Part shown: positions 28,916 to 64,000 of the stretch, one piece after another | Layout: each line of letters opens with the position of its first letter | Position numbering within the stretch: position 1 is the first letter of the stretch | Assembly (NCBI GenBank): GCA_008501765.1 | Contig: QQUE01000002.1 | Span: 244,336-308,335, forward strand | Direction: 5' to 3' | Source of the DNA: Calditrichota bacterium | GTDB lineage: Bacteria > Zhuqueibacterota > Zhuqueibacteria > Zhuqueibacterales > Geothermadaptataceae | Length of the DNA: 64,000 bases | Notes under the pieces: model-generated | Seen by the model: the letters and a program-made list of their open reading frames with translations, nothing else | Databases searched by the model: none | What the model was told of the DNA's origin: nothing | Position numbers and translations under genes: made by a program

Positions 28916-29872
28916 ATGCAACAAAATGGTGAGAAAAACTTTGCCGGAATCGGCACCTGTCCTGCATTTATAAATGTCGTTGAAAAAGCAAGCAAATTTG
29001 CCACAGTTCCTCGCCCGATTCTGATTCGGGGAGAACGTGGAACCGGCAAAGAAGTTTTGGCGCAATACATCCACAACCAAAGCCAGCGCTGCGATGAAAA
29101 ATTTGTTGCGATCAATTGTGCCGCGCTGCACGACGAGCTATTTATCGCTGAAATTTTTGGTCACGAGAAAGGGGCATTTACCGGTGCAACCAGCAACCGC
29201 ATCGGGAAACTGGAACTTGCCCACAAAGGCACGCTCTTTTTAGACGAAGTCGCCAACATGTCCCGCGATGCCCAGGAAAAGTTGCTGCGTGTCGTGGAAT
29301 ACCAGCAATTTGAAAGGCTCGGCGGTAGCGAAGAAATCCACGTCGATGTGCGCATTGTGGCAGCGACCAACGCCCATTTAGCGACTATGATCGCCAAAGG
29401 AGAGTTTCTCGCAGATCTTTATGACCGCATTGCGTTTGCCGAGCTTACTTTACCTCCATTGCGCAAGCGCCGCGAAGATATTCCCGCACTTATTTCCCAT
29501 TTTTTGAAAAATCTGCACCACGAAATGCCGGACATCGAGAAAAAAGTATTCACACCAGCCGCCGTTCGCGCTTTACAAGCCTACCATTGGCCAGGCAACA
29601 TGCGTGAGCTAAAAAATGTCATCGAGCGCCATTATATCTGGGATGCTGACGGAGTAATCCATGCTTCCGAGTTGCCTTTGGAAATAACCACGGTTGAACC
29701 GATTGGCGGCACATTTCACGAACAGGTTCGGGCCTTTGAAAAATCTCTCCTTCTAAATACGCTGAAGGACGTCATGGGAAACCAGCGCGAGGCCGCAAAA
29801 CGCTTGGGAATGACTTACGACCAATTCCGCCATTACTACAAAAAATTTGCTCTCGGGGAATTATTGGCGTAA
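28916..29872 (+). CDS. pspF: Sigma-54-dependent transcriptional activator lacking a regulatory domain (PspF-type architecture: AAA+ sigma-54 interaction domain + Fis-type HTH)
   Basis: GERGTGKEVLAQYIH (Walker A). Sigma-54-type ATPase domain (…FGHEKGAFTGA… GTLFLDEVANMSRDAQEKLLRVV…). C-terminal HTH (EAAKRLGMTYDQFRHYYKKF). No receiver, GAF or PAS domain. Lies directly upstream of pspA. Confidence 0.8.
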   Translation: MQQNGEKNFAGIGTCPAFINVVEKASKFATVPRPILIRGERGTGKEVLAQYIHNQSQRCDEKFVAINCAALHDELFIAEIFGHEKGAFTGATSNRIGKLELAHKGTLFLDEVANMSRDAQEKLLRVVEYQQFERLGGSEEIHVDVRIVAATNAHLATMIAKGEFLADLYDRIAFAELTLPPLRKRREDIPALISHFLKNLHHEMPDIEKKVFTPAAVRALQAYHWPGNMRELKNVIERHYIWDADGVIHASELPLEITTVEPIGGTFHEQVRAFEKSLLLNTLKDVMGNQREAAKRLGMTYDQFRHYYKKFALGELLA

Positions 29873-29941
29873 AAAACCACTCCTTGGCGTAATCCCCCAC
29901 TTTGGATCGAAACCACTCTTTAAAAAACAACAAGTTACATT

Positions 29942-29957
29942 TGGCATCATCGTTGCT
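29942..29957 (+). promoter_or_regulatory. Sigma-54 (-24/-12) promoter upstream of pspA
   Basis: TGGCAT-catcg-TTGCT with exact GG-N10-GC spacing. The core matches consensus TGGCAC-N5-TTGCW except the last -24 base (T for C). Lies 65 bp upstream of the pspA ATG. Two direct AAACCACTC repeats sit further upstream (29875, 29911). Confidence 0.7.
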
Positions 29958-30021
29958 TAAATCGCGGCATGTTTATATCAGACAAAAATTATTTTGAACA
30001 ATATTTCTATTGGAGGCTACA

Positions 30022-30723
30022 ATGAAAGTTTTTAAACGTGTAACTGAAATGGTAAAAGCGAATATCAATCATTTGCTTGATCAGGCGGAAGATCCCGAAG
30101 TTATGGTCAAGCAAATCATTCGCGATATGGAAGAAAGCATCATCGAAATGCGCCGTGAGACGGTACGAGCCGTATCCCGTGAAAAACAAGTTGAAAAGCA
30201 GTTGCAGATCGCGCAGAATTTATCAAACGATTATGCAGCCAAAGCCGGCGAGGCCGTGGAAAAAGGAAACGAGGAGTTGGCGCGGAAAATTCTGGCGAAA
30301 AAAGTAGTAACCGATCAACAAAGCACCGCTTTAGCCAGTGAACTCAAGGAAGCAAAAATCGTTTCGGAGCAGTTAAAAAACGACTTGCTCAGCCTTGAAG
30401 ATAAAGTTCAAAGCGCCCGGCGTAAAAAGGAAGAACTCATCCGTAGAAAACGCTCCGCCGATGCCAAGTTGCGAATCCAGGAATCGGCCAATAAAGCGAT
30501 AGATGGTATCAAAAACGCAGCGGGTAAAATTTCCAGCATCACCGATTCAGAATCATCGCTAAAAAGTTATGAAGATGCGATTATGGGACTTGAGGCCGAT
30601 GCCGAAGCAGCACATGAAATTGCCAAGCTCGGACAGGAAAATGATATTGATCTCGATAAATTGGAGAAAGAAAAAGCCGTTGAAGATGAGCTGGCGAAAC
30701 TGAAAAAACAACAAAAGAAATAA
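30022..30723 (+). CDS. pspA: Phage shock protein A (PspA/IM30/Vipp1 family)
   Basis: MKVFKRVTEMVKANINHLLDQAEDPEVMVKQIIRDMEESIIEMRRETVRAVSREKQ… matches the PspA N-terminal signature (…NALLDKAEDPEKM..Q.I.EME…). Long coiled coil throughout. RBS GGAGG upstream. Confidence 0.88.
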   Translation: MKVFKRVTEMVKANINHLLDQAEDPEVMVKQIIRDMEESIIEMRRETVRAVSREKQVEKQLQIAQNLSNDYAAKAGEAVEKGNEELARKILAKKVVTDQQSTALASELKEAKIVSEQLKNDLLSLEDKVQSARRKKEELIRRKRSADAKLRIQESANKAIDGIKNAAGKISSITDSESSLKSYEDAIMGLEADAEAAHEIAKLGQENDIDLDKLEKEKAVEDELAKLKKQQKK

Positions 30724-36011: not shown

Positions 36012-36259
36012 TTAATAATTTTCCGCCATCTTTGTAAGACTACAATAGTGTTAATACGCAGAAAAACCAGGCGATTTTCGGGTCGCAGTCGAGGGCAAAG
36101 CATGTTTTAGAAATGACTGTTCAGAAAATTTCGCACCAATTTATTATATCGGAATATGCGTTTATTTATTTATCATAACTCTTATAATTATTGAAAACGA
36201 AAAACACTTATCCCAAATATTTTAGTTTAAAAAACAGATTTGCAGCAGAAATTTTAGCT

Positions 36260-52432: not shown

Positions 52433-53641
52433 TTGAATTCAAGTTCGCAGTCAAATGCTGAAATCAGCTCAATAAAGTCGAAATCCTTGCTCGTCTATTT
52501 GGGCATTTGGCTTGTTGTCAGCTTCATATTTTTTTTCGTGTTTCTGCCCAGCGATTTTGCCGCTGAGATGCAACGCCCACTACGCCATGTGCTGTTGCAG
52601 TTTTCCTTTTCGATAATTCTTGCCGGATTTTTGGCGCCGTTCATCATTCTGCTCAATGATTTTTTCCCATTCGAGATACACAAATTGTGGGTCATTATCG
52701 GGATGCATCTCATCGGGTTGGCCGTTTTCTCCCTGATTTATATCAACGCATTTCAGTACCTCATTGAGCATTACATTGGCTTTCCGGGACGCGGTTTTGG
52801 CGGCCGGATGCAACTCGGTCCACGGCCTTTTTTCGAGGGCAATTTTGCACAGAGTTTAATGCAAACCCGTTTATTTGTCAATGCGCTGCAACATATCTGG
52901 CAATCGGTCTTTTTTTACATTTTAATTCTCGGATTAAATTACAGTTTCAATTTTTACCGCAAATACCGCGAGCGCGAAATTCATGCGTCGCACCTGGAAT
53001 TGCAACTGATCAATTCGCAATTACGCGCCCTGAAAACTCAGTTGCAACCGCATTTTCTGTTTAATACCTTGCACACCCTCTCTTCATTAATTTACCAAGA
53101 TGTGCCAGCAGCCGACAAAATGATTCGGCAATTGAGCGATTTGCTGCGCCTGACATTAGACAGCACTGGCGATCAGGAAATACCAATTAAACGCGAGGTT
53201 GAACACCTGCAGCTCTATCTCGAAATCATGCAAATTCGTTTTCAGGACCGACTGCAGGTAAAATATGATATCGCTGCTGAGGCTGAAAACTCATTTATTC
53301 CGACACTTCTCCTGCAACCTCTTGTGGAAAATTGTATAAAACATGGATTGGAAGCATCGACACGTCAGGGGTTGGTTGAGATTTCTGTGCAAAAACAGGA
53401 AGAGAAAATTGTAATTTCGGTAATTGACAATGGCCCCGGTTTCACAGGGGATGCCAACGCTCTTTTTCAGAAAGGGGTAGGATTAGCGAATACGGCCGAC
53501 CGCCTGCAAAAACTCTACAGCAGCAACCATAAATTGGAGATCACTTCCAACGGCAATAATGGAACGAAAGTTTATATCGAATATCCATTTCACACTACAC
53601 CGTGGTTGAATAATTTAAGCTTCTATTCTTCAGGAGCTTAG
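52433..53641 (+). CDS. LytS/YehU-family sensor histidine kinase (5TM-like membrane region + His_kinase + HATPase_c)
   Basis: …QLQPHFLFNTLHTLSSLIYQD… (LytS-type H-box). C-terminal HATPase_c (…VIDNGPGF…GVGLANTADRL…). No LytTR regulator is adjacent. Confidence 0.8.
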   Translation: MNSSSQSNAEISSIKSKSLLVYLGIWLVVSFIFFFVFLPSDFAAEMQRPLRHVLLQFSFSIILAGFLAPFIILLNDFFPFEIHKLWVIIGMHLIGLAVFSLIYINAFQYLIEHYIGFPGRGFGGRMQLGPRPFFEGNFAQSLMQTRLFVNALQHIWQSVFFYILILGLNYSFNFYRKYREREIHASHLELQLINSQLRALKTQLQPHFLFNTLHTLSSLIYQDVPAADKMIRQLSDLLRLTLDSTGDQEIPIKREVEHLQLYLEIMQIRFQDRLQVKYDIAAEAENSFIPTLLLQPLVENCIKHGLEASTRQGLVEISVQKQEEKIVISVIDNGPGFTGDANALFQKGVGLANTADRLQKLYSSNHKLEITSNGNNGTKVYIEYPFHTTPWLNNLSFYSSGA

Positions 53642-54157: not shown

Positions 54158-54646
54158 CTCTCATCTCCGTGTTTTTTTACGATAGCCATTCATTTAATTC
54201 TCATAAATGTGGATCGTAATGCAAGCGGCATACCACATCATAAGTTATTGTTTTTATTAAAAAATAAATTATTTACTTTGGCTTAATACACCAGGACTTG
54301 GTGGAAAACACCATTTAATATGATGGCTATTTGAGGCAAAACTCAACAATGGACGGCAAGTCTAGCACAAATTATTTCATCTGATGAACCGGCCTTTTCA
54401 CCCCGAGGCGTTGATAGATCTCATCCGTTGTTACAGATAATCCTGCTAAATTGCGATTGTCATAAATTATGGGAATTTCCAAGATTAAGCATATTACTTG
54501 CAGATATCAATTTAAGTTAATATAATAAACAGGCTTATTCAGCCCAAAAGAGTGCGGATTATAATATGCAATTAATACAATTTCAAGCTTAACTTGAATT
54601 GTAATAGACGCATAAATTAGTATGAGCTGTCAACAAAGAGACCCAT

Positions 54647-56086
54647 TTGTCCACAGGCAAAAAAAATACCGATGTGGTAGTAAATCAAAAGTTTAGAATT
54701 CGTGTTTTGATCATTGGCGCCGGCAGCACATCCGCACCGATGATCAAATTATTAATTAACGACCAGAGTATTTCTATTTCTGCTGTCGTTGATAAAGATG
54801 CCGGAGCTCCGGGAATTGCACTCGCCGAACAACTGGGAATCTCCACCTCGAAAAACTACCACGATTTTATCGAGGATAACAACCTCGATATGATTATTAA
54901 TATGGTGGAAAACCCGGCCCTGCACCAAAAATTAGCCAAAGAAAAACCGCTGCACACAATTCTTATCGGGCAATCCAGTGCAATGCTCATCTGGACAATG
55001 CTCGGTGAACATAAAAAGAAAAAAATTTTAAAAGACACTTTTCGCTCTACCTGGACAACGACACACGGGCAAATTGCCGGCGGGTTTATCATCGGACGGG
55101 GTGATAAAATGCAAGAAGTCGGCAGGCTTATTTCCCAGGTTTCGCCGACATCAACGGCTGTGTTTATCCGGGGTGAAAGCGGCACCGGCAAGGAACTTGT
55201 CGCTCGTATGGTGCATAAAAACAGTATTTTGCATGAATCCCATCTCATTACAGTAAACTGCACCGCGCTGAGCCCAACGCTCATTGAAAGTGAACTATTT
55301 GGCCATAAAAAAGGGGCGTTTACCGGAGCCCATTCAGACCACATCGGGTTATTCGAAAGGTCGCACAACGGCACCTTGTTTCTCGACGAAATAGGCGACA
55401 TGCCCTCAGCACTGCAGGCTAAACTACTGCGTTTTTTACAGTCCGGCGAAATCCGTCCAATTGGCGGCATTGAAGTCAAAAAAGTAAATGTCAGGATTAT
55501 CGCAGCAACCAATAGAGACCTGGAAGCAGCAATGGAAAAGGATGAATTTCGCATGGATCTGTTTTACAGACTAAATGCTTTCACAATTCATCTGCCCCCT
55601 TTGCGCGAAAGAAAAGAGGATATTCCACAACTGGCATATACTTTCTTAAAAAACGTCAAAGCAAAATTGAACAAATCCATTAGTAAAATATCCCTTGAAG
55701 CCATGTCAATTTTTGTGGAACACAATTGGCCGGGCAACATTCGTGAACTGCGAAATGTTGTTGAAAGAGCGGCTGTGCTGACATCTTCATATGAAATTAA
55801 AGCACGGCATCTGCCACTTTATCTACAACCGCAACATAGCTCAGAGAGCAGCAGGGCAATACCCAAAAACTTAAATGAAGGATTCATGGCTTTGAAAGCC
55901 AAAGCGATAAACACATTCGAATACGAGGTTGTCTCGAAATATCTGTTAGAAAACGGTGGCAATGTTTCCCGCGCAGCCTCAGCTGCACGCGTACCGCGCC
56001 GCACATTTCAACGGCTGATGTCAAAGCATAAAATTAACACCGACACTTTTAAAGCCGGGGAGTCTTCACAACAGAAAAGGGAATAA
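54647..56086 (+). CDS. Sigma-54-dependent transcriptional activator with atypical N-terminal Rossmann-like domain
   Basis: N-terminal ~130 aa (RVLIIGAGSTSAPMIKLL…AVVDKDAGAPGIALAEQLGI…) looks like an NAD(P)-binding/dehydrogenase-like N-terminal fold rather than REC, GAF or PAS. Then GESGTGKELVARMVH, GAFTGA and ESELFGH motifs of the sigma-54 AAA+ domain. C-terminal HTH. Confidence 0.85.
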   Translation: MSTGKKNTDVVVNQKFRIRVLIIGAGSTSAPMIKLLINDQSISISAVVDKDAGAPGIALAEQLGISTSKNYHDFIEDNNLDMIINMVENPALHQKLAKEKPLHTILIGQSSAMLIWTMLGEHKKKKILKDTFRSTWTTTHGQIAGGFIIGRGDKMQEVGRLISQVSPTSTAVFIRGESGTGKELVARMVHKNSILHESHLITVNCTALSPTLIESELFGHKKGAFTGAHSDHIGLFERSHNGTLFLDEIGDMPSALQAKLLRFLQSGEIRPIGGIEVKKVNVRIIAATNRDLEAAMEKDEFRMDLFYRLNAFTIHLPPLRERKEDIPQLAYTFLKNVKAKLNKSISKISLEAMSIFVEHNWPGNIRELRNVVERAAVLTSSYEIKARHLPLYLQPQHSSESSRAIPKNLNEGFMALKAKAINTFEYEVVSKYLLENGGNVSRAASAARVPRRTFQRLMSKHKINTDTFKAGESSQQKRE

Positions 56087-56261
56087 CATTTTAATATATT
56101 TCATTCGCAAGCTTACTCTTCCTTTTCTCATCAAACCTGGAAAAGCAATCAACTACACATCTATAATCAACTCCGGTTAATATATTTCAAATCCCACCCC
56201 GTCGTGTTTTTCAGAATCTGCTAATAGCTTAAAATTCTACTTTTCACTTCTTTCATGTGCA

Positions 56262-56420
56262 TGCGACATTTTCATCGCACAAGTGTGTGGCAAAAATGTC
56301 GCACACTAAAAACATTTGCGTAACATTAATATAATAAGCGACTTATTTTTGCGCGTTTCCATTCCCAACCGTCCGTTTTTTGAATAAAAGCAGAATTATT
56401 ACAGCGGCAAAAATGTCGCA
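56262..56420 (+). promoter_or_regulatory. Three copies of AAAATGTCGCAC-containing motif: an inverted pair (candidate enhancer/UAS) plus a GG-N10-GC sigma-54-like element
   Basis: 56262-56280 TGCGACATTTTCATCGCAC (inverted). 56284-56306 TGTGTGGCAAAAATGTCGCACAC (TGGCA…GC with N10 spacing). 56405-56420 CGGCAAAAATGTCGCA (GG-N10-GC), ~115 bp further downstream. Confidence 0.45.
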
Positions 56421-56849
56421 CCCCGATTTAGCCTATCTAATATTAAAAATAGTAAAACAGTCAATATATTTTGTTTTTTAGTGGTTTACGATGAATCTAT
56501 TGCAACACTTTATTAAAATCGATAATAAAAATTATTGGCATAGCTTTAGCATTAGAATAAGCCCATACGATCTATGCATTGATCGACTGTGCGAAACACG
56601 ACTCGGAATTATAAACAGGTTTTACAAGACTCACCTAATCGGAGGAGAAAATTGATGTTTATATTATCCGGATTCATATAACACCCCCGAGAAAAGTCGA
56701 ATACAAGTAGCCTCACCTCGCATCGCATCCGCGGCAAACATCTTTCAATATCCGAAACTTGACTACAGCTACGATAAATTAGAAATTAAAACATGCAGAA
56801 TTCGTTTAATACGGCAAACTTAATTCTATCCTGCCTGAGGAGGAACACG

Positions 56850-58025
56850 ATGAAAAAGTTTCTGTTTTACTCTATTTTATGTGCTTTATTTTCAATAACA
56901 GCGCTGCAAGCCCAGGGGAACTATGGCATCAATTTTTCAGGATTTGTTAAATCAGACAACATGTTTGACTCCCGGCAGACGGTTGCTGCACGGGAAGGGC
57001 ATTTTGTATTGTATCCTGCTGCGGAAGATTTAGATGAAAATAATGACGATATTAATGCACAACCGCATTTCAATATGTTAGCCATTCAGACGCGTTTAAC
57101 AGGTAAAATTTCAGCACCGGATGCTTTTGGCGCCAAAGTTTCAGGTGTCATTGAAGGTGCATTTTTTGGGCATACGAACGATGATATCAACGGCTTCCGG
57201 CTCCGCCATGCAATGATGCAAATGACCTGGGACAAATCAACTCTAACTTTTGGCCAAACCTGGCACCCTCTTTTCGTGACAGCTTGTTTTCCAGGTGTTG
57301 TTTCGTTTAATACCGGTGTTCCCTTGCAGCCGTTTTCCCGAAATCCGCAAATCCGCTTGACCCAATCGTTGAACAATAAAACCAAACTTATATTAGCTGC
57401 CATGTCACAACGAGATTTCGCCAGTACAGGCGGCAGCACTTCTTTACGGAATGCAGTTATTCCTAATTTACACGCACAACTTCAGCTCAGCAATAACGGA
57501 AATGTATTTGGCGCAGGTGTAGATTATAAAATTCTCCGCCCTGTTTTGGCCGTGGATGAAACCGTCGCAGGCATGAGTTTCCTTGCCTACACAAAATTAG
57601 ATGTTTCCGGAACGACGGTAAAAGTGTACGGCATCGTAGGGCAAAACCTGACCGATCACTTAATGCTGGGTGGTTACGCATTTAAGGCGACAGCTGCCGA
57701 GTACACAACGGTTAACAATATGTCCGTATGGGGCGAACTTATCCGCGGCAAAAAACGCCAGGTTGGTCTCTTTGCTGGTTATACGAAAAATCAGGGAGCA
57801 TCCGATCCTGTCATCTCCAGCACGGTCAGCGCACGCGGAAGCAATATCGACAATGTTCTTCGCGTCTCCCCACGCATTGTTTGGAATTCAGGTAAAGCCC
57901 GATTTGCTCTTGAAGGTGAATATACCGCAGCAGCCTATGGTACAGCAGATAATGAACTTAAAGTTGAAGACACAACAACGGTATCCAATTTCCGCGTTCT
58001 TTTTGCAACTTATCTGTTCTTTTAA
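56850..58025 (+). CDS. Putative outer-membrane beta-barrel porin
   Basis: Signal peptide MKKFLFYSILCALFSITALQAQG. Alternating amphipathic beta-strand pattern. C-terminal …ATYLFF (terminal Phe typical of OMPs). First gene downstream of the sigma-54 elements. Confidence 0.5.
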   Translation: MKKFLFYSILCALFSITALQAQGNYGINFSGFVKSDNMFDSRQTVAAREGHFVLYPAAEDLDENNDDINAQPHFNMLAIQTRLTGKISAPDAFGAKVSGVIEGAFFGHTNDDINGFRLRHAMMQMTWDKSTLTFGQTWHPLFVTACFPGVVSFNTGVPLQPFSRNPQIRLTQSLNNKTKLILAAMSQRDFASTGGSTSLRNAVIPNLHAQLQLSNNGNVFGAGVDYKILRPVLAVDETVAGMSFLAYTKLDVSGTTVKVYGIVGQNLTDHLMLGGYAFKATAAEYTTVNNMSVWGELIRGKKRQVGLFAGYTKNQGASDPVISSTVSARGSNIDNVLRVSPRIVWNSGKARFALEGEYTAAAYGTADNELKVEDTTTVSNFRVLFATYLFF

Positions 58026-58090
58026 GTGAGTTCGTTATCCGGTGAGAAAATCAAATTTTTTATCTCATATTTAATTTAACGGAGGAATTT

Positions 58091-58351
58091 ATGGCGACTA
58101 AAGAGAACCTGGCGGCTTACTGGAAAACCAATCTCAAGTATTTAAGTATTTTACTGTCGATTTGGTTTATCGTAAGCTATGGGTGTGGAATTCTATTTGT
58201 GGATGCCCTCGACACTATTCCACTCTTTGGATTTAAACTGGGATTTTGGTTTGCACAACAAGGCTCAGAAATCATCTTTGTTATTTTGATATTCGTCTAT
58301 GTGAATTGGATGAATAAATTGGATCAAAAATATGGTGTAGCAGAAGATTAA
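58091..58351 (+). CDS. DUF4212 small membrane protein (putative small subunit of a sodium:solute symporter)
   Basis: 86 aa with two TM helices, immediately upstream of an SSS-family transporter. This is the conserved DUF4212-SSS pairing. Confidence 0.7.
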   Translation: MATKENLAAYWKTNLKYLSILLSIWFIVSYGCGILFVDALDTIPLFGFKLGFWFAQQGSEIIFVILIFVYVNWMNKLDQKYGVAED

Positions 58352-58392
58352 TTCTAAAAACGATTTTTTCCACTCTTAACGGAGGATATATA

Positions 58393-60087
58393 ATGAGTAT
58401 TTTAATGTGGACTTGGATCATCGTTGGTTTGACTTTTGCGCTCTACATCGGTATTGCGATCTGGTCGAGAGCGAGTTCCACGGGAGAGTTTTATGTAGCA
58501 TCAAAACAGGTTCATCCCATTGCAAACGGTATGGCCACCGGTGCAGACTGGATGTCAGCGGCATCTTTCATTTCAATGGCCGGGCTCATTTCATTTATTG
58601 GAAGGGATGGCGCCGTTTATCTTATGGGTTGGACAGGAGGCTACGTGCTTCTTGCACTTTTGCTGGCACCCTATCTACGAAAATTCGGGAAATACACAGT
58701 CCCGGAATTTGTCGGTGAGCGTTATTATTCCGATGTGGCACGAATTGTCGCTGTTATTTGTGCTATTTTTGTTTCGTTTACATACGTTGCCGGACAGATG
58801 CGTGGCGTTGGTATCGTTTTCTCGCGCTTCCTCGAAGTTGATATAACTTCGGGGGTAATAATCGGTGTCGGTATCGTTTTCTTTTATGCGGTTTTGGGTG
58901 GAATGAAAGGCATCACCTACACTCAGGTGGCGCAATACTGTGTTTTAATTGTCGCTTATCTCATTCCAGCAATTTTTATTTCGATTCTCGTTACCGGTAA
59001 TCCAATCCCGCAACTGGGTTTTGGAAGTACCGAAAGCGCGACTGGAACATATTTATTGGATAAACTGGATAATTTGCATGAAGCACTGGGTTTTGCCGCT
59101 TATACTGCAGGCACAAAATCAACGATTGATGTCTTTTTTATCACTGCAGCGTTGATGGTGGGAACAGCAGGCCTGCCGCACGTTATCATTCGATTTTTCA
59201 CGGTTCCCAAAGTAGCCGACGCTCGTAAATCAGCAGGATGGGCCTTGTTTTTCATCGCAATTCTTTATACGACTGCACCTGCCGTTGCTGCTTTTGCCCG
59301 CACAAATATGATCACAACCCTCAATGACAAACCCTATGCCAGCGCCCCAAGCTGGTTTAAAAACTGGGAAGAAACAAAACTAATCGCCTGGACCGATAAA
59401 AATGACGATGGTATTATGCAATTGCGTGGAAAAAATGCGCCAGACGGTTTGGAAAATGAATTAAAAGTTGATCGCGATATTATGGTTTTAGCGAATCCTG
59501 AAATTGCACAATTGCCAAATTGGGTCGTTGCCCTGGTGGCCGCAGGCGGATTAGCTGCTGCGCTCTCAACAGCTGCGGGACTTCTGCTGGTTATTTCGAC
59601 CTCTGTGTCGCACGATTTGTTGAAGAGTGTGATGATGCGCGATATGGATGAGAAAAAGGAGCTTGTTGCAGCGCGCATCGCAGCAGGATTTGCGGTAGCA
59701 ATCGCCGGTTATTTTGGTATTAATCCGCCCGGCTTTGTGGCGCAGGTAGTCGCCTTCGCATTTGGACTGGCAGCTTCCTCCTTCTTCCCGATTATTATTT
59801 TAGGAATCTTCTCCAAAAAAGTGAACAAAGAGGGCGCCATCGCCGGTATGTTAAGTGGAATTATTTTTACCGCAGCCTACATTATCTACTTTAAATTTGT
59901 GAATCCAGGTGCGAACAATCCATCAAATTGGTGGTTTGGCATTTCTCCAGAGGGCATTGGTACACTGGGCATGTTGTTGAATTTTATTGTGACTTTAGTC
60001 GTGACAAAATTCACACCCGCCCCACCGGAACATATTCAGCATTTGGTTGAAAATGTACGTGTACCGAAAGAATTGGAAGCATCATAA
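58393..60087 (+). CDS. Sodium:solute symporter family (SSF/SSS) transporter, acetate/monocarboxylate permease (ActP-like)
   Basis: 564 aa with ~13 TM helices and SSS signature regions (…GLPHVIIRFFTV…; AAGGLAAALSTAAGLLLV). Genomic context with DUF4212, acs and prpE. Confidence 0.88.
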   Translation: MSILMWTWIIVGLTFALYIGIAIWSRASSTGEFYVASKQVHPIANGMATGADWMSAASFISMAGLISFIGRDGAVYLMGWTGGYVLLALLLAPYLRKFGKYTVPEFVGERYYSDVARIVAVICAIFVSFTYVAGQMRGVGIVFSRFLEVDITSGVIIGVGIVFFYAVLGGMKGITYTQVAQYCVLIVAYLIPAIFISILVTGNPIPQLGFGSTESATGTYLLDKLDNLHEALGFAAYTAGTKSTIDVFFITAALMVGTAGLPHVIIRFFTVPKVADARKSAGWALFFIAILYTTAPAVAAFARTNMITTLNDKPYASAPSWFKNWEETKLIAWTDKNDDGIMQLRGKNAPDGLENELKVDRDIMVLANPEIAQLPNWVVALVAAGGLAAALSTAAGLLLVISTSVSHDLLKSVMMRDMDEKKELVAARIAAGFAVAIAGYFGINPPGFVAQVVAFAFGLAASSFFPIIILGIFSKKVNKEGAIAGMLSGIIFTAAYIIYFKFVNPGANNPSNWWFGISPEGIGTLGMLLNFIVTLVVTKFTPAPPEHIQHLVENVRVPKELEAS

Positions 60088-60103
60088 TTGTATGTAGCTG
60101 AGA

Positions 60104-60136
60104 AAACACCCTGTCAATTCGGCGGGGTGTTTTTGA
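60104..60136 (+). terminator. Putative terminator after symporter gene
   Basis: AACACCCTG-tcaattcgg-CGGGGTGTT followed by TTTTT. Confidence 0.5.
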
Positions 60137-60172
60137 GAGAAAACGGATCTATTCTCCCCTCTTGGGATCATA

Positions 60173-60377
60173 GGCGTCAAGTTAAGGAATTCAAAATGTG
60201 GACAACAGCTTTTTTTGACTCTAATCACGGACATCCCCCTCAATCCCCCTTCAAAGGGGGACTTAAAAAATCTCCCTTTGAAGGGAGACAGGTTTGTGCT
60301 CGTCCAGAGAACAAACCAGAGGGATGTTTACAGCGAACTGCGAGTTATCCACAATCTCAGTTTCTTAACTTGACGCG
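60173..60377. other. ~205-bp hairpin-rich element bounded by 13-16-bp inverted repeats (GCGTCAAGTTAAG), upstream of acs
   Basis: Left GGCGTCAAGTTAAGGAA (60173-60189) and right TTTCTTAACTTGACGCG (60361-60377) are inverted repeats. Internal hairpins: CCCCCT-tcaa-AGGGGG; TCTCCCT-ttga-AGGGAGA; GGTTTGT-…-ACAAACC. The overlapping 114-aa ORF looks non-coding. Confidence 0.4.
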
Positions 60378-60470
60378 CATGCTCTTGGGATGGGAATTCC
60401 AAGCGTTGAAACAAAGTATATGTAATTATTAAACATAGAATAATACAAAAATAAACCGCAGGAGTACAGT

Positions 60471-62408
60471 ATGAGTTCGGTTGCTCCATTCAAACCAGCC
60501 GCGAATTTTGCTAAAAAAGCGCATATCAACACGCAGGCAGAATATCAGAAATTATACGAATCATCGATAAATGAACCGGAAAACTTTTGGGCAGAGATGG
60601 CTGAGGAACTTCATTGGTTTAAAAAATGGGACAAAGTTGTTGAATACGATTTCCGAAAGGGTGAAATCAAATGGTTTATTGGTGGCAAACTCAACGTGAG
60701 CTATAATTGTCTTGATCGTCACGTTCTTGCCGGAAATGGAAATAAGACCGCATTACTTTGGGAAGGAAATGATCCGGCTGAATCAAAATCATATTCCTAC
60801 AGCGAGCTGCTTTCCGAAGTTCAAAAATGTGCTAATGTGCTCAAATCCAACGGAATAAAAAAAGGCGACCGGGTGTGCATTTACATGCAGATGATTCCCG
60901 AATTAGCCATAGCGATGTTAGCCTGCACACGTATTGGCGCTGTCCATTCCATTGTCTTCGGCGCTTTTAGCAGCGATTCGTTACGCGACCGGATTAATGA
61001 CTCTGCCTGTAAAATGCTCATCACTCAGGATTCCGGTGTGCGCGGTGTCAAACAAGACATCCCGATGAAAGTTAACGCCGATACTGCGGCTGCGGAATGT
61101 CCTTCCATCGAAAAAATTCTCACAGTAAGACGCACGGGACTTGAAGTTAACATGAAAAGTGGACGAGACATTTACTGGCACGAAGAAATGGACGCGGCTG
61201 ACGCAGAATGCCCCGTAGAAGAAATGGACGCGGAAGATCCCCTGTACATTTTATACACTTCGGGATCCACTGGCAAACCTAAGGGGGTTTTGCACACAAC
61301 CGGTGGCTATCTTGTTTACACTTCGCTCACTCATAAATATGTTTTTGATTACCACGAAGGCGATATCTATTGGTGCACCGCCGACATCGGCTGGGTAACC
61401 GGGCATTCTTACATAGTTTACGGTCCTTTAGCCAACCGCGCTATCACTATGATGTACGAAGGTGTTCCCAATTATCCCGATTATGGTAGATTTTGGAAAA
61501 TCGTTGAAAAACATAAAGTTAATATATTGTACACTGCGCCAACAGCTATTCGAGCGCTGATGAAGGAAGGAACGTCCTGGCCGGAAAAATATGATTTGTC
61601 TTCGCTGCAACTGCTTGGCACTGTGGGCGAGCCAATAAAAGAAGCGGACTGGACCTGGTACAACGAAGTGATCGGAAAAAAACGTTGCCCCATCGTGGAT
61701 ACCTGGTGGCAAACGGAAACCGGCGGCATTTTGATCACCCCGCTTCCGGGTGTGACAGCAACCAAACCAGGCTCCGCAACGATCCCCTTTTTCGGTGTAC
61801 TACCGGTTATTCTTGACGAACAAGGAAACGAACTGGAAGGTGCCGCGCAAGGATATTTGGCTATAAAGGCAGCCTGGCCAAGTTTAATGCGCACAGTTTA
61901 TGGCGATCATGACCGCTTTATCCAAACATATTTTGCGCGCTTTCCAGGTTATTATTTCACCGGAGATGGCGCACGCCGTGATGAAGATGGTTACTACTGG
62001 ATTACCGGCCGTGTCGATGATGTATTAAATATTTCCGGGCACCGCATCGGGACAGCAGAAGTAGAAGGAGCGATCGGCCGGACAGATGGCGTCGCAGAAG
62101 CGGCTGTTGTTGGTTTCCCACATGATATTAAAGGGCAGGGAATTTATGCCTTCGTAACTATGATGACAGGCGTAGATGCGGATGATACAACAATTACGGC
62201 CATTGAAAATACGGTGAGAAAACTGATTGGTCCGCACGCGAAGCCCGATAAAATTCAATTCACACCAGCCCTTCCAAAAACACGATCTGGCAAGATTATG
62301 CGCCGGATATTACGGAAAATTGCAGAAGGGAATGTGGATCAACTCGGAGATATTTCAACATTGGCTGATCCCGGCGTTGTCACAAACCTGGTTGATCAGC
62401 GGCAATAA
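60471..62408 (+). CDS. acs: Acetyl-coenzyme A synthetase (AMP-forming)
   Basis: 645 aa. …[32 protein letters not shown]…, [11 protein letters not shown] (AMP-binding motif) and …WWQTETGG… are all canonical Acs signatures. Confidence 0.95.
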
Positions 62409-62624
62409 AATCATTATTTTTGGATGAGCGCATATTGATGACTTTTTGGAACCTATCAATCCAGGTTTCAATAAATAAGGTGTAACTGTTATTCCCGGGA
62501 TTGACAACTTTGTGACTAACTATGAAATTATTATTAGACAGGATTAACGGGACGGCCCGAATAATTAAAAAAATCCAGTGAATCCCGTCTTGTCAAAATC
62601 GTGTTCCATTTGAGAGGGCAATTC

Positions 62625-64000
62625 ATGAATTACAGAGATCACTACGCACAATTTTTGGCTTCTCCAGAAAAATTTTGGGCGGATCAGGCTGACAGGATCG
62701 CCTGGTTTGAAAGCCCGCAAAAAATATTATCGCAGAACCAAAGAGGGCATTACCGCTGGTTTGAGGGAGGAAAGCTAAATACCTGCTACCTTTGTACGGA
62801 TTATCACATAGAAAATGGCCGCGGAGAACAGGTCGCCCTCATCTATGATTCTCCCGTAACCGGGAATGTAAAAAAACTCACATACACAGAACTCCGTGAC
62901 CAGACCGCATTATTTGCAGGTGTATTAGCAGGTCTCGGTGTAACGAAAGGTGATCGTGTTATTATCTACATGCCGATGGTGCCTGAGGCAGTTATCGCCA
63001 TGCTCGCCTGTGCCCGGCTCGGAGCGATTCACTCGGTGGTTTTCGGCGGTTTTGCTTCCCATGAATTAGCCATCCGCATTGATGATGCCCAACCGAAAGT
63101 TGTGGTCTCGGCAAGTTGTGGGATCGAAATCAACCGTAAAATCCCCTACAAACCGTTGCTTGATGAAGCCATTAAGCTGGCGAAATACAAACCGGAACAT
63201 TGTGTTATTTTAAACCGCCCCGAACTCGAAGTCGAAAATATGACAAACCGGGATCATGACTGGGTGCAGGCTATTCGCCATGCCACCGCGGCTGATTTTG
63301 TGCCTGTTGATGCCACAGACCCTCTCTACATTTTATATACCTCCGGAACAACTGGCCTTCCAAAAGGTATAGTCCGGGATAATGGTGGTCACGCTGTAGC
63401 GCTAAAATACAGCATGGATGCGATTTACAACACAAAACCGGGCGAAGTCTACTGGGCCGCTTCGGATGTAGGCTGGGTTGTTGGCCATTCTTACATCGTT
63501 TACGCGCCATTGCTCACCGGCTGTACGACGATTTTGTTTGAAGGAAAACCAGTTAAAACTCCGGATGCCGGAAAATTCTGGCATGTAATTGCGGAACACA
63601 AAGTGAAAACATTTTTCACTGCCCCGACGGCATTTCGCGCCATCCGCAAGGAAGATCCGCAAGGCAAATTGAAGGATGACTACGATATTTCCAGTCTACG
63701 CTGCCTGTTTTTGGCTGGTGAGCGCACCGATCCGCCAACTTTAAACTGGCTGCAGGATTTGCTTAAAATCCCGGTGATCGACCACTGGTGGCAAACGGAG
63801 ACTGGCTGGCCGATGGTGGCAAATATGATGGGCGTCGAGGAATTGCCGGTCAAAGCAGGCTCAGCATCTGTCCCTGTTTGCGGGTACGACGTGCGAGTTC
63901 TCGATCCCGGCGGCAAAGAAGTTGGCCCGGGTGAAGAAGGACAAATCGTTGTAAAATTGCCACTGCCCCCCGGGTGCCTGCCAAGCTTGTATAACGATGA
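62625..64000 (+). CDS. prpE: Propionate--CoA ligase / acyl-CoA synthetase PrpE-like (partial, runs off window end)
   Basis: ATG at 62625. Close to PrpE throughout (…RVIIYMPMVPEAVIAMLACARLGAIHSVVFGGFASHELAIRIDDAQPKVVVSAS…YTSGTTGLPKG…SDVGWVVGHSYIVYAPLLTG…HWWQTETGWP…). No stop codon within the window. Confidence 0.85.
   Translation, partial: MNYRDHYAQFLASPEKFWADQADRIAWFESPQKILSQNQRGHYRWFEGGKLNTCYLCTDYHIENGRGEQVALIYDSPVTGNVKKLTYTELRDQTALFAGVLAGLGVTKGDRVIIYMPMVPEAVIAMLACARLGAIHSVVFGGFASHELAIRIDDAQPKVVVSASCGIEINRKIPYKPLLDEAIKLAKYKPEHCVILNRPELEVENMTNRDHDWVQAIRHATAADFVPVDATDPLYILYTSGTTGLPKGIVRDNGGHAVALKYSMDAIYNTKPGEVYWAASDVGWVVGHSYIVYAPLLTGCTTILFEGKPVKTPDAGKFWHVIAEHKVKTFFTAPTAFRAIRKEDPQGKLKDDYDISSLRCLFLAGERTDPPTLNWLQDLLKIPVIDHWWQTETGWPMVANMMGVEELPVKAGSASVPVCGYDVRVLDPGGKEVGPGEEGQIVVKLPLPPGCLPSLYND

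Follow-up and report, generated by a model that had tools for sequence, protein, structure and literature searches.

A 64,000-nucleotide stretch of a Calditrichota metagenome-assembled genome (MAG; contig QQUE01000002.1), referred to below as the window, encodes a sigma-54 enhancer-binding protein (EBP) whose sensor is a Rossmann domain of the NAD(P) type, followed on the same strand by genes for an outer-membrane channel (porin), a two-subunit sodium:solute symporter (SSS) and two acyl-CoA ligases. The explanation that accounts best for the data, and that we regard as rather probable, is that this EBP activates a sigma-54-dependent unit consisting of the porin and symporter genes, and that its sensor reports carbon or redox state. 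The EBP, porin, DUF4212, SSS, acs and prpE-like genes listed in a first-pass annotation of the same DNA are all present, co-directional and correctly placed. Domain identities, fold, sites with their conservation and gene contexts were established from the sequence and by comparison. The EBP is 100% identical to KAA3619507.1 of a Calditrichota MAG, annotated as 'AAA family ATPase'; this and the other public label, 'regulator with PAS, ATPase and Fis domain', are uninformative or wrong.

The sensor is a five-stranded NAD(P)-type Rossmann domain, with a likeness to such domains that is well above chance. In the AlphaFold model, whose pLDDT is >90 over most of residues 18-120, the topology is beta1-alphaA-beta2-alphaB-beta3-beta4-alphaD-beta5, followed by a long helix (residues 109-141), and the domain has the beta-alpha-beta core, the glycine-rich loop and the acidic residue ending beta-2 by which NAD(P)-binding Rossmann domains are recognized. 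The motifs are G24-A-G26-S-T-S29, D49 at the end of beta-2, A54-P-G56, NMVE (85-88) and SAMLIW (111-116). Foldseek returned DmpF (1nvm_B) as top match of the model (E = 5.6e-5, probability 1.00), and the best matches of the family profile among PDB sequences were acylating acetaldehyde dehydrogenases (E = 1.2e-6 to 2.7e-4; 7z3s, E = 1.2e-6; DmpF 1nvm_B, E = 2.4e-5). With Pfam the full-length protein matched GFO_IDH_MocA (PF01408) at 21.4 bits (E = 4.4e-4) and the sensor alone at 23.5 bits, just under the gathering threshold of 24, which is passed by some of the relatives (e.g. P0123, 26.5 bits). Among 26 aligned N-termini (alignment A2), matches were obtained to GFO_IDH_MocA (23/26), DapB_N (15/26) and CoA_binding (6/26) in Pfam, and to acetylating acetaldehyde dehydrogenase (18/26) and Rex (8/26) in NCBIfam. 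No match of the sensor to REC, GAF, PAS, V4R, PrpR_N, ACT or CARF domains was found in Pfam, NCBIfam or the PDB. The first-pass annotation had taken the N-terminus for dehydrogenase-like rather than for a usual EBP sensor and had suggested profile and structure checks of this domain; the Pfam, PDB profile, AlphaFold and Foldseek results bear it out, as they yielded a Rossmann fold and left the known EBP sensor families unmatched.

Several more specific identities were rejected. The acylating acetaldehyde dehydrogenase model TIGR03215 scored 23.9 bits against a cut-off of 282.25 and covered positions 1-76 of 285, and the catalytic domain of these enzymes is absent. An EBP joined to a working oxidoreductase was likewise rejected, as the protein lacks a catalytic domain and its Rossmann domain leads directly into the linker helix and the AAA+ core. 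A Gfo/Idh/MocA enzyme was dismissed on account of the sub-threshold score and the missing C-terminal substrate-binding/catalytic domain, Rex because its matches are weak and local and its architecture differs, and PrpR_N or another known EBP sensor for want of matches.

The remainder of the protein is that of an EBP. Its AAA+ core matched Sigma54_activat (PF00158) at 221.9 bits (cut-off 20.2) and AAA_lid_14 at 94.3 bits (cut-off 27), and the Walker A sequence GESGTGKE (176-183), the GAFTGA loop (223-228) and Walker B D247-E248 are invariant across a 40-sequence alignment. The predicted Fis-type helix-turn-helix (HTH) domain, with the recognition helix VPRRTFQRL, reached 20.6 bits with HTH_8 against a cut-off of 22, which homologues pass, and is modelled as three confident helices at 413-460. 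The full-length AlphaFold model consists of three confident domains and a low-confidence linker (residues 121-146). The closest AAA+ relatives outside the family are EBPs of ~755 aa (P0051-P0096, ~50% core identity) with Fe-hydrogenase-like N-termini (PF02906, PF04060, 4Fe-4S); judged by these domains, they would be sigma-54 activators of a sensory-hydrogenase type.

A sigma-54 promoter with the GG-N10-GC signature (TGGCAT-N5-TAGCA) lies between the EBP and porin genes (Table 1). The pattern TGGCAY-N5-TWGCW has two exact matches in the 64 kb, each directly downstream of an EBP gene. The second, TGGCATCATCGTTGCT at 29942, separates a pspF-type EBP gene from pspA and served as an internal positive control; this phage-shock set is also an indirect sign that the host genome contains rpoN. 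A Band-7/SPFH gene follows pspA. The -24 and -12 boxes of the porin promoter are identical in the related locus L009 and near-identical in L002, L005 and L012, and in L003, L001, L004 and L007 related -24/-12 elements are found upstream of the target genes.

Three 18-bp palindromes, candidate upstream activator sequences (UAS), are located 133-274 bp upstream of this promoter. Their spacing is constrained: a distance of 24 bp between UAS1 and UAS2 recurs in the window, L009, L010, L012 and L001 (in L010 this pair is visible and the contig ends before the remaining elements), UAS3 follows the pair after 110-119 bp in L001, L009, L012 and the window, and the proximal UAS is 116-135 bp from the -24 box in all eight loci having both elements. 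Counted in nine loci with up to 2 mismatches, the UAS motif occurred 22 times in 5.6 kb of spacers downstream of EBP genes, as against 8 occurrences in the other 183 kb, a 90-fold enrichment (binomial p = 1e-27). Two isolated matches in the window, at 36070 and at 59595 (inside the symporter coding sequence), were taken as chance. When the spacer was aligned with those of L009 and L012 (~80% protein identity), it proved diverged save for the palindromes, the -24/-12 boxes, a mini-open reading frame (mini-ORF) and the porin Shine-Dalgarno sequence. Moreover, the recognition helix co-varies with the UAS type across the family: L004 and L008 have a different palindrome, with GTGCCA/TGGCAC half-sites, and the helix IPRRTFYR instead of VPRRTFQRL. 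Since the -24/-12 boxes and the three palindromes, in the same layout, are common to eight related loci, the window EBP very probably exerts sigma-54 control over the porin and transporter genes.

The mini-ORF (MFILSGFI*), which has a strong Shine-Dalgarno sequence, looks like a translated leader peptide. Its counterparts are MTTISGFI* in L009 and MLRLSGFV* in L012; between these loci the codons for Ser, Gly and Phe differ synonymously at the third position. The mini-ORF is absent from the short-leader loci L002 and L005. An Rfam search gave no match to the promoter and leader of the window, nor any match in four related loci. Of the porin ORF, open from 56793, the likely true start is 56850, where a MKKFLF signal peptide is preceded by the Shine-Dalgarno sequence GAGGAGG; the protein, as read from the sequence, ends in ...YLFF.

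Upstream of the EBP gene, the putative sigma-70-type promoter stands out as conserved when the spacer, which has diverged elsewhere, is aligned with that of L010. It scores under the threshold of a generic promoter scan, and the generic sigma-70 and terminator scan gave counts no higher than those in shuffled sequence. On the opposite strand, a sigma-54-like element 63 nt upstream of ORF 54157-53900 (-), a conserved 85-aa membrane protein gene diverging from the EBP gene, has no TGCGAC-N6-GTCGCA site near it. Farther upstream, a LytS-type histidine kinase (His_kinase + HATPase_c) is encoded at 52433-53641 (+); no LytTR partner was seen between it and the EBP gene, and it is not kept beside the EBP in L010.

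Table 1. Positions of the EBP gene, its predicted regulatory sites, the downstream genes and the phage-shock set in the window
Feature	Position	Strand	Remarks
Phage-shock set	28916-30723	+	sensor-less PspF-type EBP 28916-29872, promoter 29942, pspA 30010-30723
Sigma-54-like element	54235-54220	-	TGGTATGCCGCTTGCA; counterpart in L010 TGGTATGGTGCTTGCC
Sigma-70-type promoter of EBP gene (putative)	54498..54526	+	-35 TTGCAG, 17-nt spacer, -10 TATAAT
EBP gene	54647..56086	+	479-aa sigma-54 enhancer-binding protein; Pfam and NCBIfam
Rossmann-like sensor, NAD(P)/CoA-binding type	54698..55006	+	residues 18-120
EBP domains			residues: disordered tail 1-17; Rossmann-like sensor 18-108; linker helix 109-~141; AAA+ 148-402; HTH ~413-460
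Spacer from EBP gene to porin ORF			706 bp
UAS1	56262..56279	.	TGCGACATTTTCATCGCA; 1 mismatch to TGCGAC-N6-GTCGCA; kept in L009, L010, L012
UAS2	56286..56303	.	TGTGGCAAAAATGTCGCA; 24 bp from UAS1
UAS3	56403..56420	.	AGCGGCAAAAATGTCGCA; 133 bp upstream of -24; kept in L009, L012
Sigma-54 promoter	56536..56551	+	TGGCATAGCTTTAGCA
Leader mini-ORF	56655..56681	+	8 codons; Shine-Dalgarno AATCGGAGGAG at 56639-56647
Outer-membrane channel, probably DcaP family	56850..58025	+	391 aa from MKKFLF
DUF4212 small symporter subunit	58091..58351	+	PF13937 114 bits; TIGR03647 113.3 bits (cut-off 26.05)
VC_2705-family sodium:solute symporter, large subunit	58393..60087	+	TIGR03648 877.3 bits (cut-off 320.75)
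Terminator-like hairpin and U-run	60102..60134	+	14-bp stem, dG -21.6 kcal/mol, z = -4.6
acs, acetyl-CoA synthetase	60471..62408	+	TIGR02188 974.2 bits (cut-off 724.95)
Second AMP-forming acyl-CoA ligase, prpE-like	62625..64000	+	gene runs past window end

The sigma-54 unit most likely comprises the leader and the porin, DUF4212 and SSS genes and ends after the symporter gene. In L009 and L012, too, the symporter gene is followed by a comparable hairpin and then by T-rich sequence, and neither a UAS nor a -24/-12 element was found upstream of acs or of the prpE-like gene. Because of this hairpin and the lack of sites, the two ligase genes, of which acs is functionally linked, are probably transcribed separately. 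The complete import-and-activate pathway of the first-pass annotation thus probably does not form a single sigma-54 unit.

The symporter-acs spacer also contains a sub-threshold match to the whalefall-1 RNA (RF01762; 60268-60328 (+); score 30.6 bits, gathering score 37; E = 5.4e-4 with the whole window searched). The match covers the full length of the model and lies inside a very stable two-hairpin structure (60225-60335; dG -51 kcal/mol, z = -6); it is missing from the equivalent spacers of L009, L002, L005 and L003. Neither a host nor a function is known to have been assigned to whalefall-1, and if true, the match would be a Calditrichota example.

About 40 full-length homologues from Calditrichia, KSB1 and unclassified MAGs keep the N-terminus (45-80% identity), with the consensus VLLIGAGxxG...VVDxNPxAPGxxLA...LDLIINVTG...SAxLIWTL. 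A narrower N-terminal alignment yielded five related genome loci, and a metagenome scan five distant ones. In all 11 loci examined (11/11), carbon-assimilation genes are found downstream; the contig of L010 ends after the UAS pair. In the window, L009, L012, L002 and L005 the EBP gene is followed by porin - DUF4212 - SSS - acs (+ second ligase), and in L003 by malate synthase A - isocitrate lyase - porin - DUF4212 - SSS - acs. In L006 it precedes malate synthase - isocitrate lyase, and in L001 (KSB1) the same cassette of three palindromes and promoter stands directly upstream of RuBisCO-PRK, ~4.7 kb beyond the EBP gene. Calvin-cycle operons are headed by more distant members: the EBP genes of L004 and L008 (~45% identity) precede tkt-fba-rpe-glpX or fba-rpe-glpX-RuBisCO(form II)-PRK, and that of L007 a RuBisCO-like region and then rpe. 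The latter region (L007 10806-11680), downstream of the EBP gene and of a sigma-54-like site (10665), consists of two overlapping tblastn segments resembling the RuBisCO large subunit and contains no called gene; either the gene has become a frameshifted pseudogene or the assembly is faulty here. As the contexts include the glyoxylate shunt and RuBisCO, the EBP family appears to regulate carbon assimilation generally, the window EBP representing its acetate-uptake branch as judged by gene context.

These contexts bear on the possibility that the EBP is a dedicated sensor of short-chain fatty acids (SCFA), i.e. of acetate, propionate or their CoA esters, which induces a single operon from porin to prpE. 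The order EBP-porin-DUF4212-SSS-acs(-acs/prpE) preserved in five loci speaks for it, as does the DmpF family, the closest structural relatives of the sensor, whose members bind CoA/acetyl-CoA besides NAD. Yet the same EBP family, UAS and spacing precede RuBisCO-PRK in L001, and the family also heads malate synthase-isocitrate lyase in L003 and L006. The single operon was in itself judged unlikely, since terminator-like hairpins stand between symporter and acs in three loci and neither acs nor prpE is preceded by a UAS or a sigma-54 site. Taking these observations together, we consider the dedicated SCFA sensor quite improbable. Of the SCFA-scavenging control by sigma-54 predicted in the first-pass annotation, control of the porin and transporter genes is likely, whereas neither the inclusion of acs and prpE nor the restriction of the family to SCFA was upheld.

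The transporter, announced earlier as an 'SSS acetate-type permease', is not of the ActP type. Its genes, 41 bp apart, encode a two-subunit system of the VC_2705/DUF4212 family, and the large subunit scored far under every cut-off of the ActP, MctC and MctP models. An ActP-type acetate permease was therefore rejected (TIGR02711, 135 bits against 1099; NF006903, 169 bits against 750). The window porin gave no direct match to Pfam DcaP (PF19577), but it is 64% identical to the L005 protein, which passes at 32.7 bits (cut-off 27; L002 porin, 25.3), and by this homology it probably belongs to the DcaP family. DcaP is a dicarboxylate channel. The prpE-like ligase matched the propionate-CoA ligase model NF007815 at 572 bits over 458 of ~629 residues (cut-off 955; the gene is cut by the window end), compared with 471 bits for acetate-CoA ligase. 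Propionate activation, also claimed in the first-pass annotation, agrees with this best match and depends on one truncated gene.

The operon could accordingly import some other small carboxylate (lactate, pyruvate or D-alanine), the proximity of acs being coincidental or part of a broader organic-acid island. This alternative draws on the low ActP, MctC and MctP scores, on the role of DcaP as a dicarboxylate channel, and on the fitness data of Price et al., in which DUF4212 symporters showed D,L-lactate and D-alanine phenotypes. Against it, acs is immediately downstream in six independent loci, L003 has its glyoxylate-shunt genes after the EBP gene and ahead of the porin-transporter genes, a family member heads the glyoxylate-shunt operon of L006, and none of the loci examined has a lactate dehydrogenase or alanine-catabolic gene downstream of the EBP gene. 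We therefore hold another substrate to be a minor possibility; acetate would be the substrate by virtue of the recurrent acs and glyoxylate-shunt context. In the data of Price et al. a COG2905-type partner was cofit with DUF4212 symporters. A COG2905-type gene (cNMP-binding/CBS/DUF294 nucleotidyltransferase) follows the acs genes in L002 (18280-19416) and L005 (18281-19377), and the window stops before the equivalent position.

From these results we infer as follows that the EBP binds DNA, what its ligand may be, in which direction it acts, which substrate is transported and where the operon ends. The EBP gene would be read from its own sigma-70-type promoter, and the Fis-type HTH of the product would bind the three TGCGAC-N6-GTCGCA palindromes. 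With the sensor in a permissive state, signalled through the long helical linker, the AAA+ core would assemble, its GAFTGA loop would contact sigma-54, and ATP hydrolysis would open the promoter. The transcript would contain the leader with the 8-codon mini-ORF and code for the presumed DcaP-family channel and the DUF4212 + VC_2705 sodium:monocarboxylate symporter before stopping at the terminator, and the acs and prpE-like ligases would trap imported acetate, perhaps propionate, as CoA thioesters. Redox or metabolite sensing by the window EBP is plausible. The likely ligand is NAD(P)(H) or CoA/acetyl-CoA, because the fingerprint of the wider family is canonical, because the closest relatives are NAD+/CoA-binding DmpF-type enzymes, and because the targets make or use acetyl-CoA or, with the Calvin cycle, provide an electron sink. 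Since family members would act through the same sites on the glyoxylate shunt or RuBisCO-PRK as well, it is the general carbon or redox state, and not acetate as such, that the sensor most likely reports.

A number of observations weigh against this mechanism. The DUF4212-type symporters characterised by experiment transport lactate or D-alanine and not acetate. In the -12 box, the GC is preceded by A instead of the T of the consensus (TAGC vs TTGC); the porin leader is ~290 nt long, compared with 63-95 nt in more distant loci; no RpoN box was found within the 64-kb window; and some read-through of the terminator into acs is conceivable. The linker has pLDDT values <50, which makes the path of signal transmission a conjecture. 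Finally, the window sensor has GAGSTS in place of GxGxxG and NMVE in place of NVTG, so that dinucleotide binding may be altered or lost.

This last point touches on an alternative in which the window Rossmann domain is degenerate and ligand-free and serves only in dimerisation or repression, or as a docking site (e.g. for an anti-activator), the signal arriving by protein contact. Besides the window lineage, parts of the fingerprint were lost independently in two other acetate-linked lineages: in P0033-38 it reads GGNTDG, and in P0031 + P0039 GSGRST or VGGQPTT, with the beta-2 Asp (D49) and the conserved Trp (W116) gone. The ligand of these three lineages may therefore have changed or been lost. 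In NtrC1/DctD-type EBPs, a long helix after the sensor serves dimer-based repression, and the long helix between sensor and AAA+ core suggests, in a low-confidence part of the model, a similar arrangement. On the other hand, G24, G26, D49 and the A-P-G motif are kept in the window sensor, and many enzymes bind dinucleotides with GxGxxS and GxGxxA variants. The domain is 77% identical among close relatives, and the wider family retains the canonical fingerprint, as in MDZ7267513.1 of KSB1; the RuBisCO/Calvin-Benson-Bassham-linked members have GAG[RK][AG]G...D...NVTG. On balance a ligand-free domain seems unlikely, though less so than the dedicated SCFA sensor or another substrate, and we retain a sensor of carbon or redox state.

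The Rossmann module is not confined to EBPs. While a word-indexed search with the N-terminal 146 aa gave one fragment, full-length and exhaustive HMMER searches recovered the relatives: in 1.84 billion representative proteins, 424 were matched at E <= 1e-3 and 76 at E <= 1e-10. The module is N-terminal in nearly all of the 150 matches listed, in proteins of 80-1351 aa, and a Pfam scan of 70 full-length carriers detected HisKA (40), PAS (~45), GAF (18), GGDEF (14) and Sigma54_activat (4). GxGxxG, the beta-2 Asp, AxGxxxA and the 'TG' after beta-4 are near-invariant in the wider set, so the module, its dinucleotide fingerprint intact, has the features of an input domain used modularly in signalling. 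Neither a dedicated Pfam family nor a description in the literature was found. On three metagenome contigs (L018, L019, L020) the EBPs are longer, with ~330 residues of further domains between the module and the AAA+ core.

Taken jointly, these data admit a wider reading, which we put forward tentatively and rate as possible, below the simpler mechanism given above: the ~105-residue module would be an undescribed, widespread cytoplasmic input domain of histidine kinases, diguanylate cyclases and EBPs that senses either NAD(P)H/NAD(P)+ or acetyl-CoA/CoA pools, the EBP branch would be a master switch, and the acetate-linked lineages would have re-tuned or lost the ligand site. If so, the EBP branch would let Calditrichota and KSB1 choose among acetate scavenging, the glyoxylate shunt and the Calvin cycle, as a sigma-54 counterpart of Rex and CbbR, and the same module on kinases and c-di-GMP cyclases may generally couple signalling to cofactor pools. 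Sigma-54 activators are classed by their sensors, and the Rossmann-sensor family would add a new class; to our knowledge, the sensor catalogues list REC, GAF, PAS, V4R, PrpR_N, ACT, CARF and similar domains, and no dinucleotide-type Rossmann domain. In the literature, we found neither a Rossmann-sensor EBP nor sigma-54 control of DUF4212-type transporters. The 18-bp palindrome, the fixed spacing and the -24/-12 boxes provide a testable code for carbon assimilation in two poorly understood sediment phyla, with RuBisCO in KSB1 among the targets.

In its function the proposed system resembles known regulators of acetate scavenging. The acs-yjcH-actP operon of E. coli is under CRP/Fis/IHF, and acetate uptake and activation in Vibrio and Pseudomonas are under CrbS/CrbR. 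In Geobacter, the symporter genes GSU1068/1070 were reported to be under the IclR-type GSU1072 (PMC7962754). BccR, also of Geobacter, is REC-type. As proposed for the window, the regulators of the E. coli, CrbS/CrbR and Geobacter systems govern high-affinity acetate scavenging genes beside acs, but none of these systems has a Rossmann-sensor sigma-54 EBP.

Among known proteins, DmpF, MhpF and BphJ (TIGR03215) are the best match to the sensor in sequence and structure, with the common pattern beta1-GxGxxG...beta2-D-x4-[AS]-x-G-x3-A, and the Rossmann site of DmpF-type enzymes takes both NAD+ and CoA. The likeness is limited to about the first 90-100 residues, and the EBP has neither the dimerisation/catalytic domain nor the catalytic cysteine. 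The NADH/NAD+-sensing repressor Rex likewise uses a short Rossmann domain purely as the sensor of a transcription factor, and the resemblance, although weak, is recurrent (PDB 5zz5, E = 6.5e-3; E >= 1.3e-4 for the NCBIfam Rex matches). In contrast to the EBP, Rex is a repressor of sigma-70 promoters without an AAA+ core, its winged helix precedes the Rossmann domain, and its similarity is weaker than that of DmpF-type enzymes.

Within the EBPs, RtcR offers a precedent: its N-terminal CARF domain is a Rossmann-like alpha/beta sensor, and the ligand is of the nucleotide type. It matches only the AAA+ part of the window EBP (residues 140-425), its CARF domain lacks the GxGxxG fingerprint, and its target is RNA repair, not carbon uptake. 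From NorR, NifA and FhlA (GAF), XylR and DmpR (V4R), PrpR (PrpR_N) and TyrR (ACT), the window EBP differs in its NAD(P)-type Rossmann sensor, which was matched to none of their sensor families in Pfam, NCBIfam or the PDB. In other respects it resembles them: like these proteins, it combines a sensor with an AAA+ core carrying GAFTGA and, as predicted, a Fis-type HTH, palindromic UAS lie 100-300 bp from the -24/-12 promoter, and the regulator gene adjoins the target operon.

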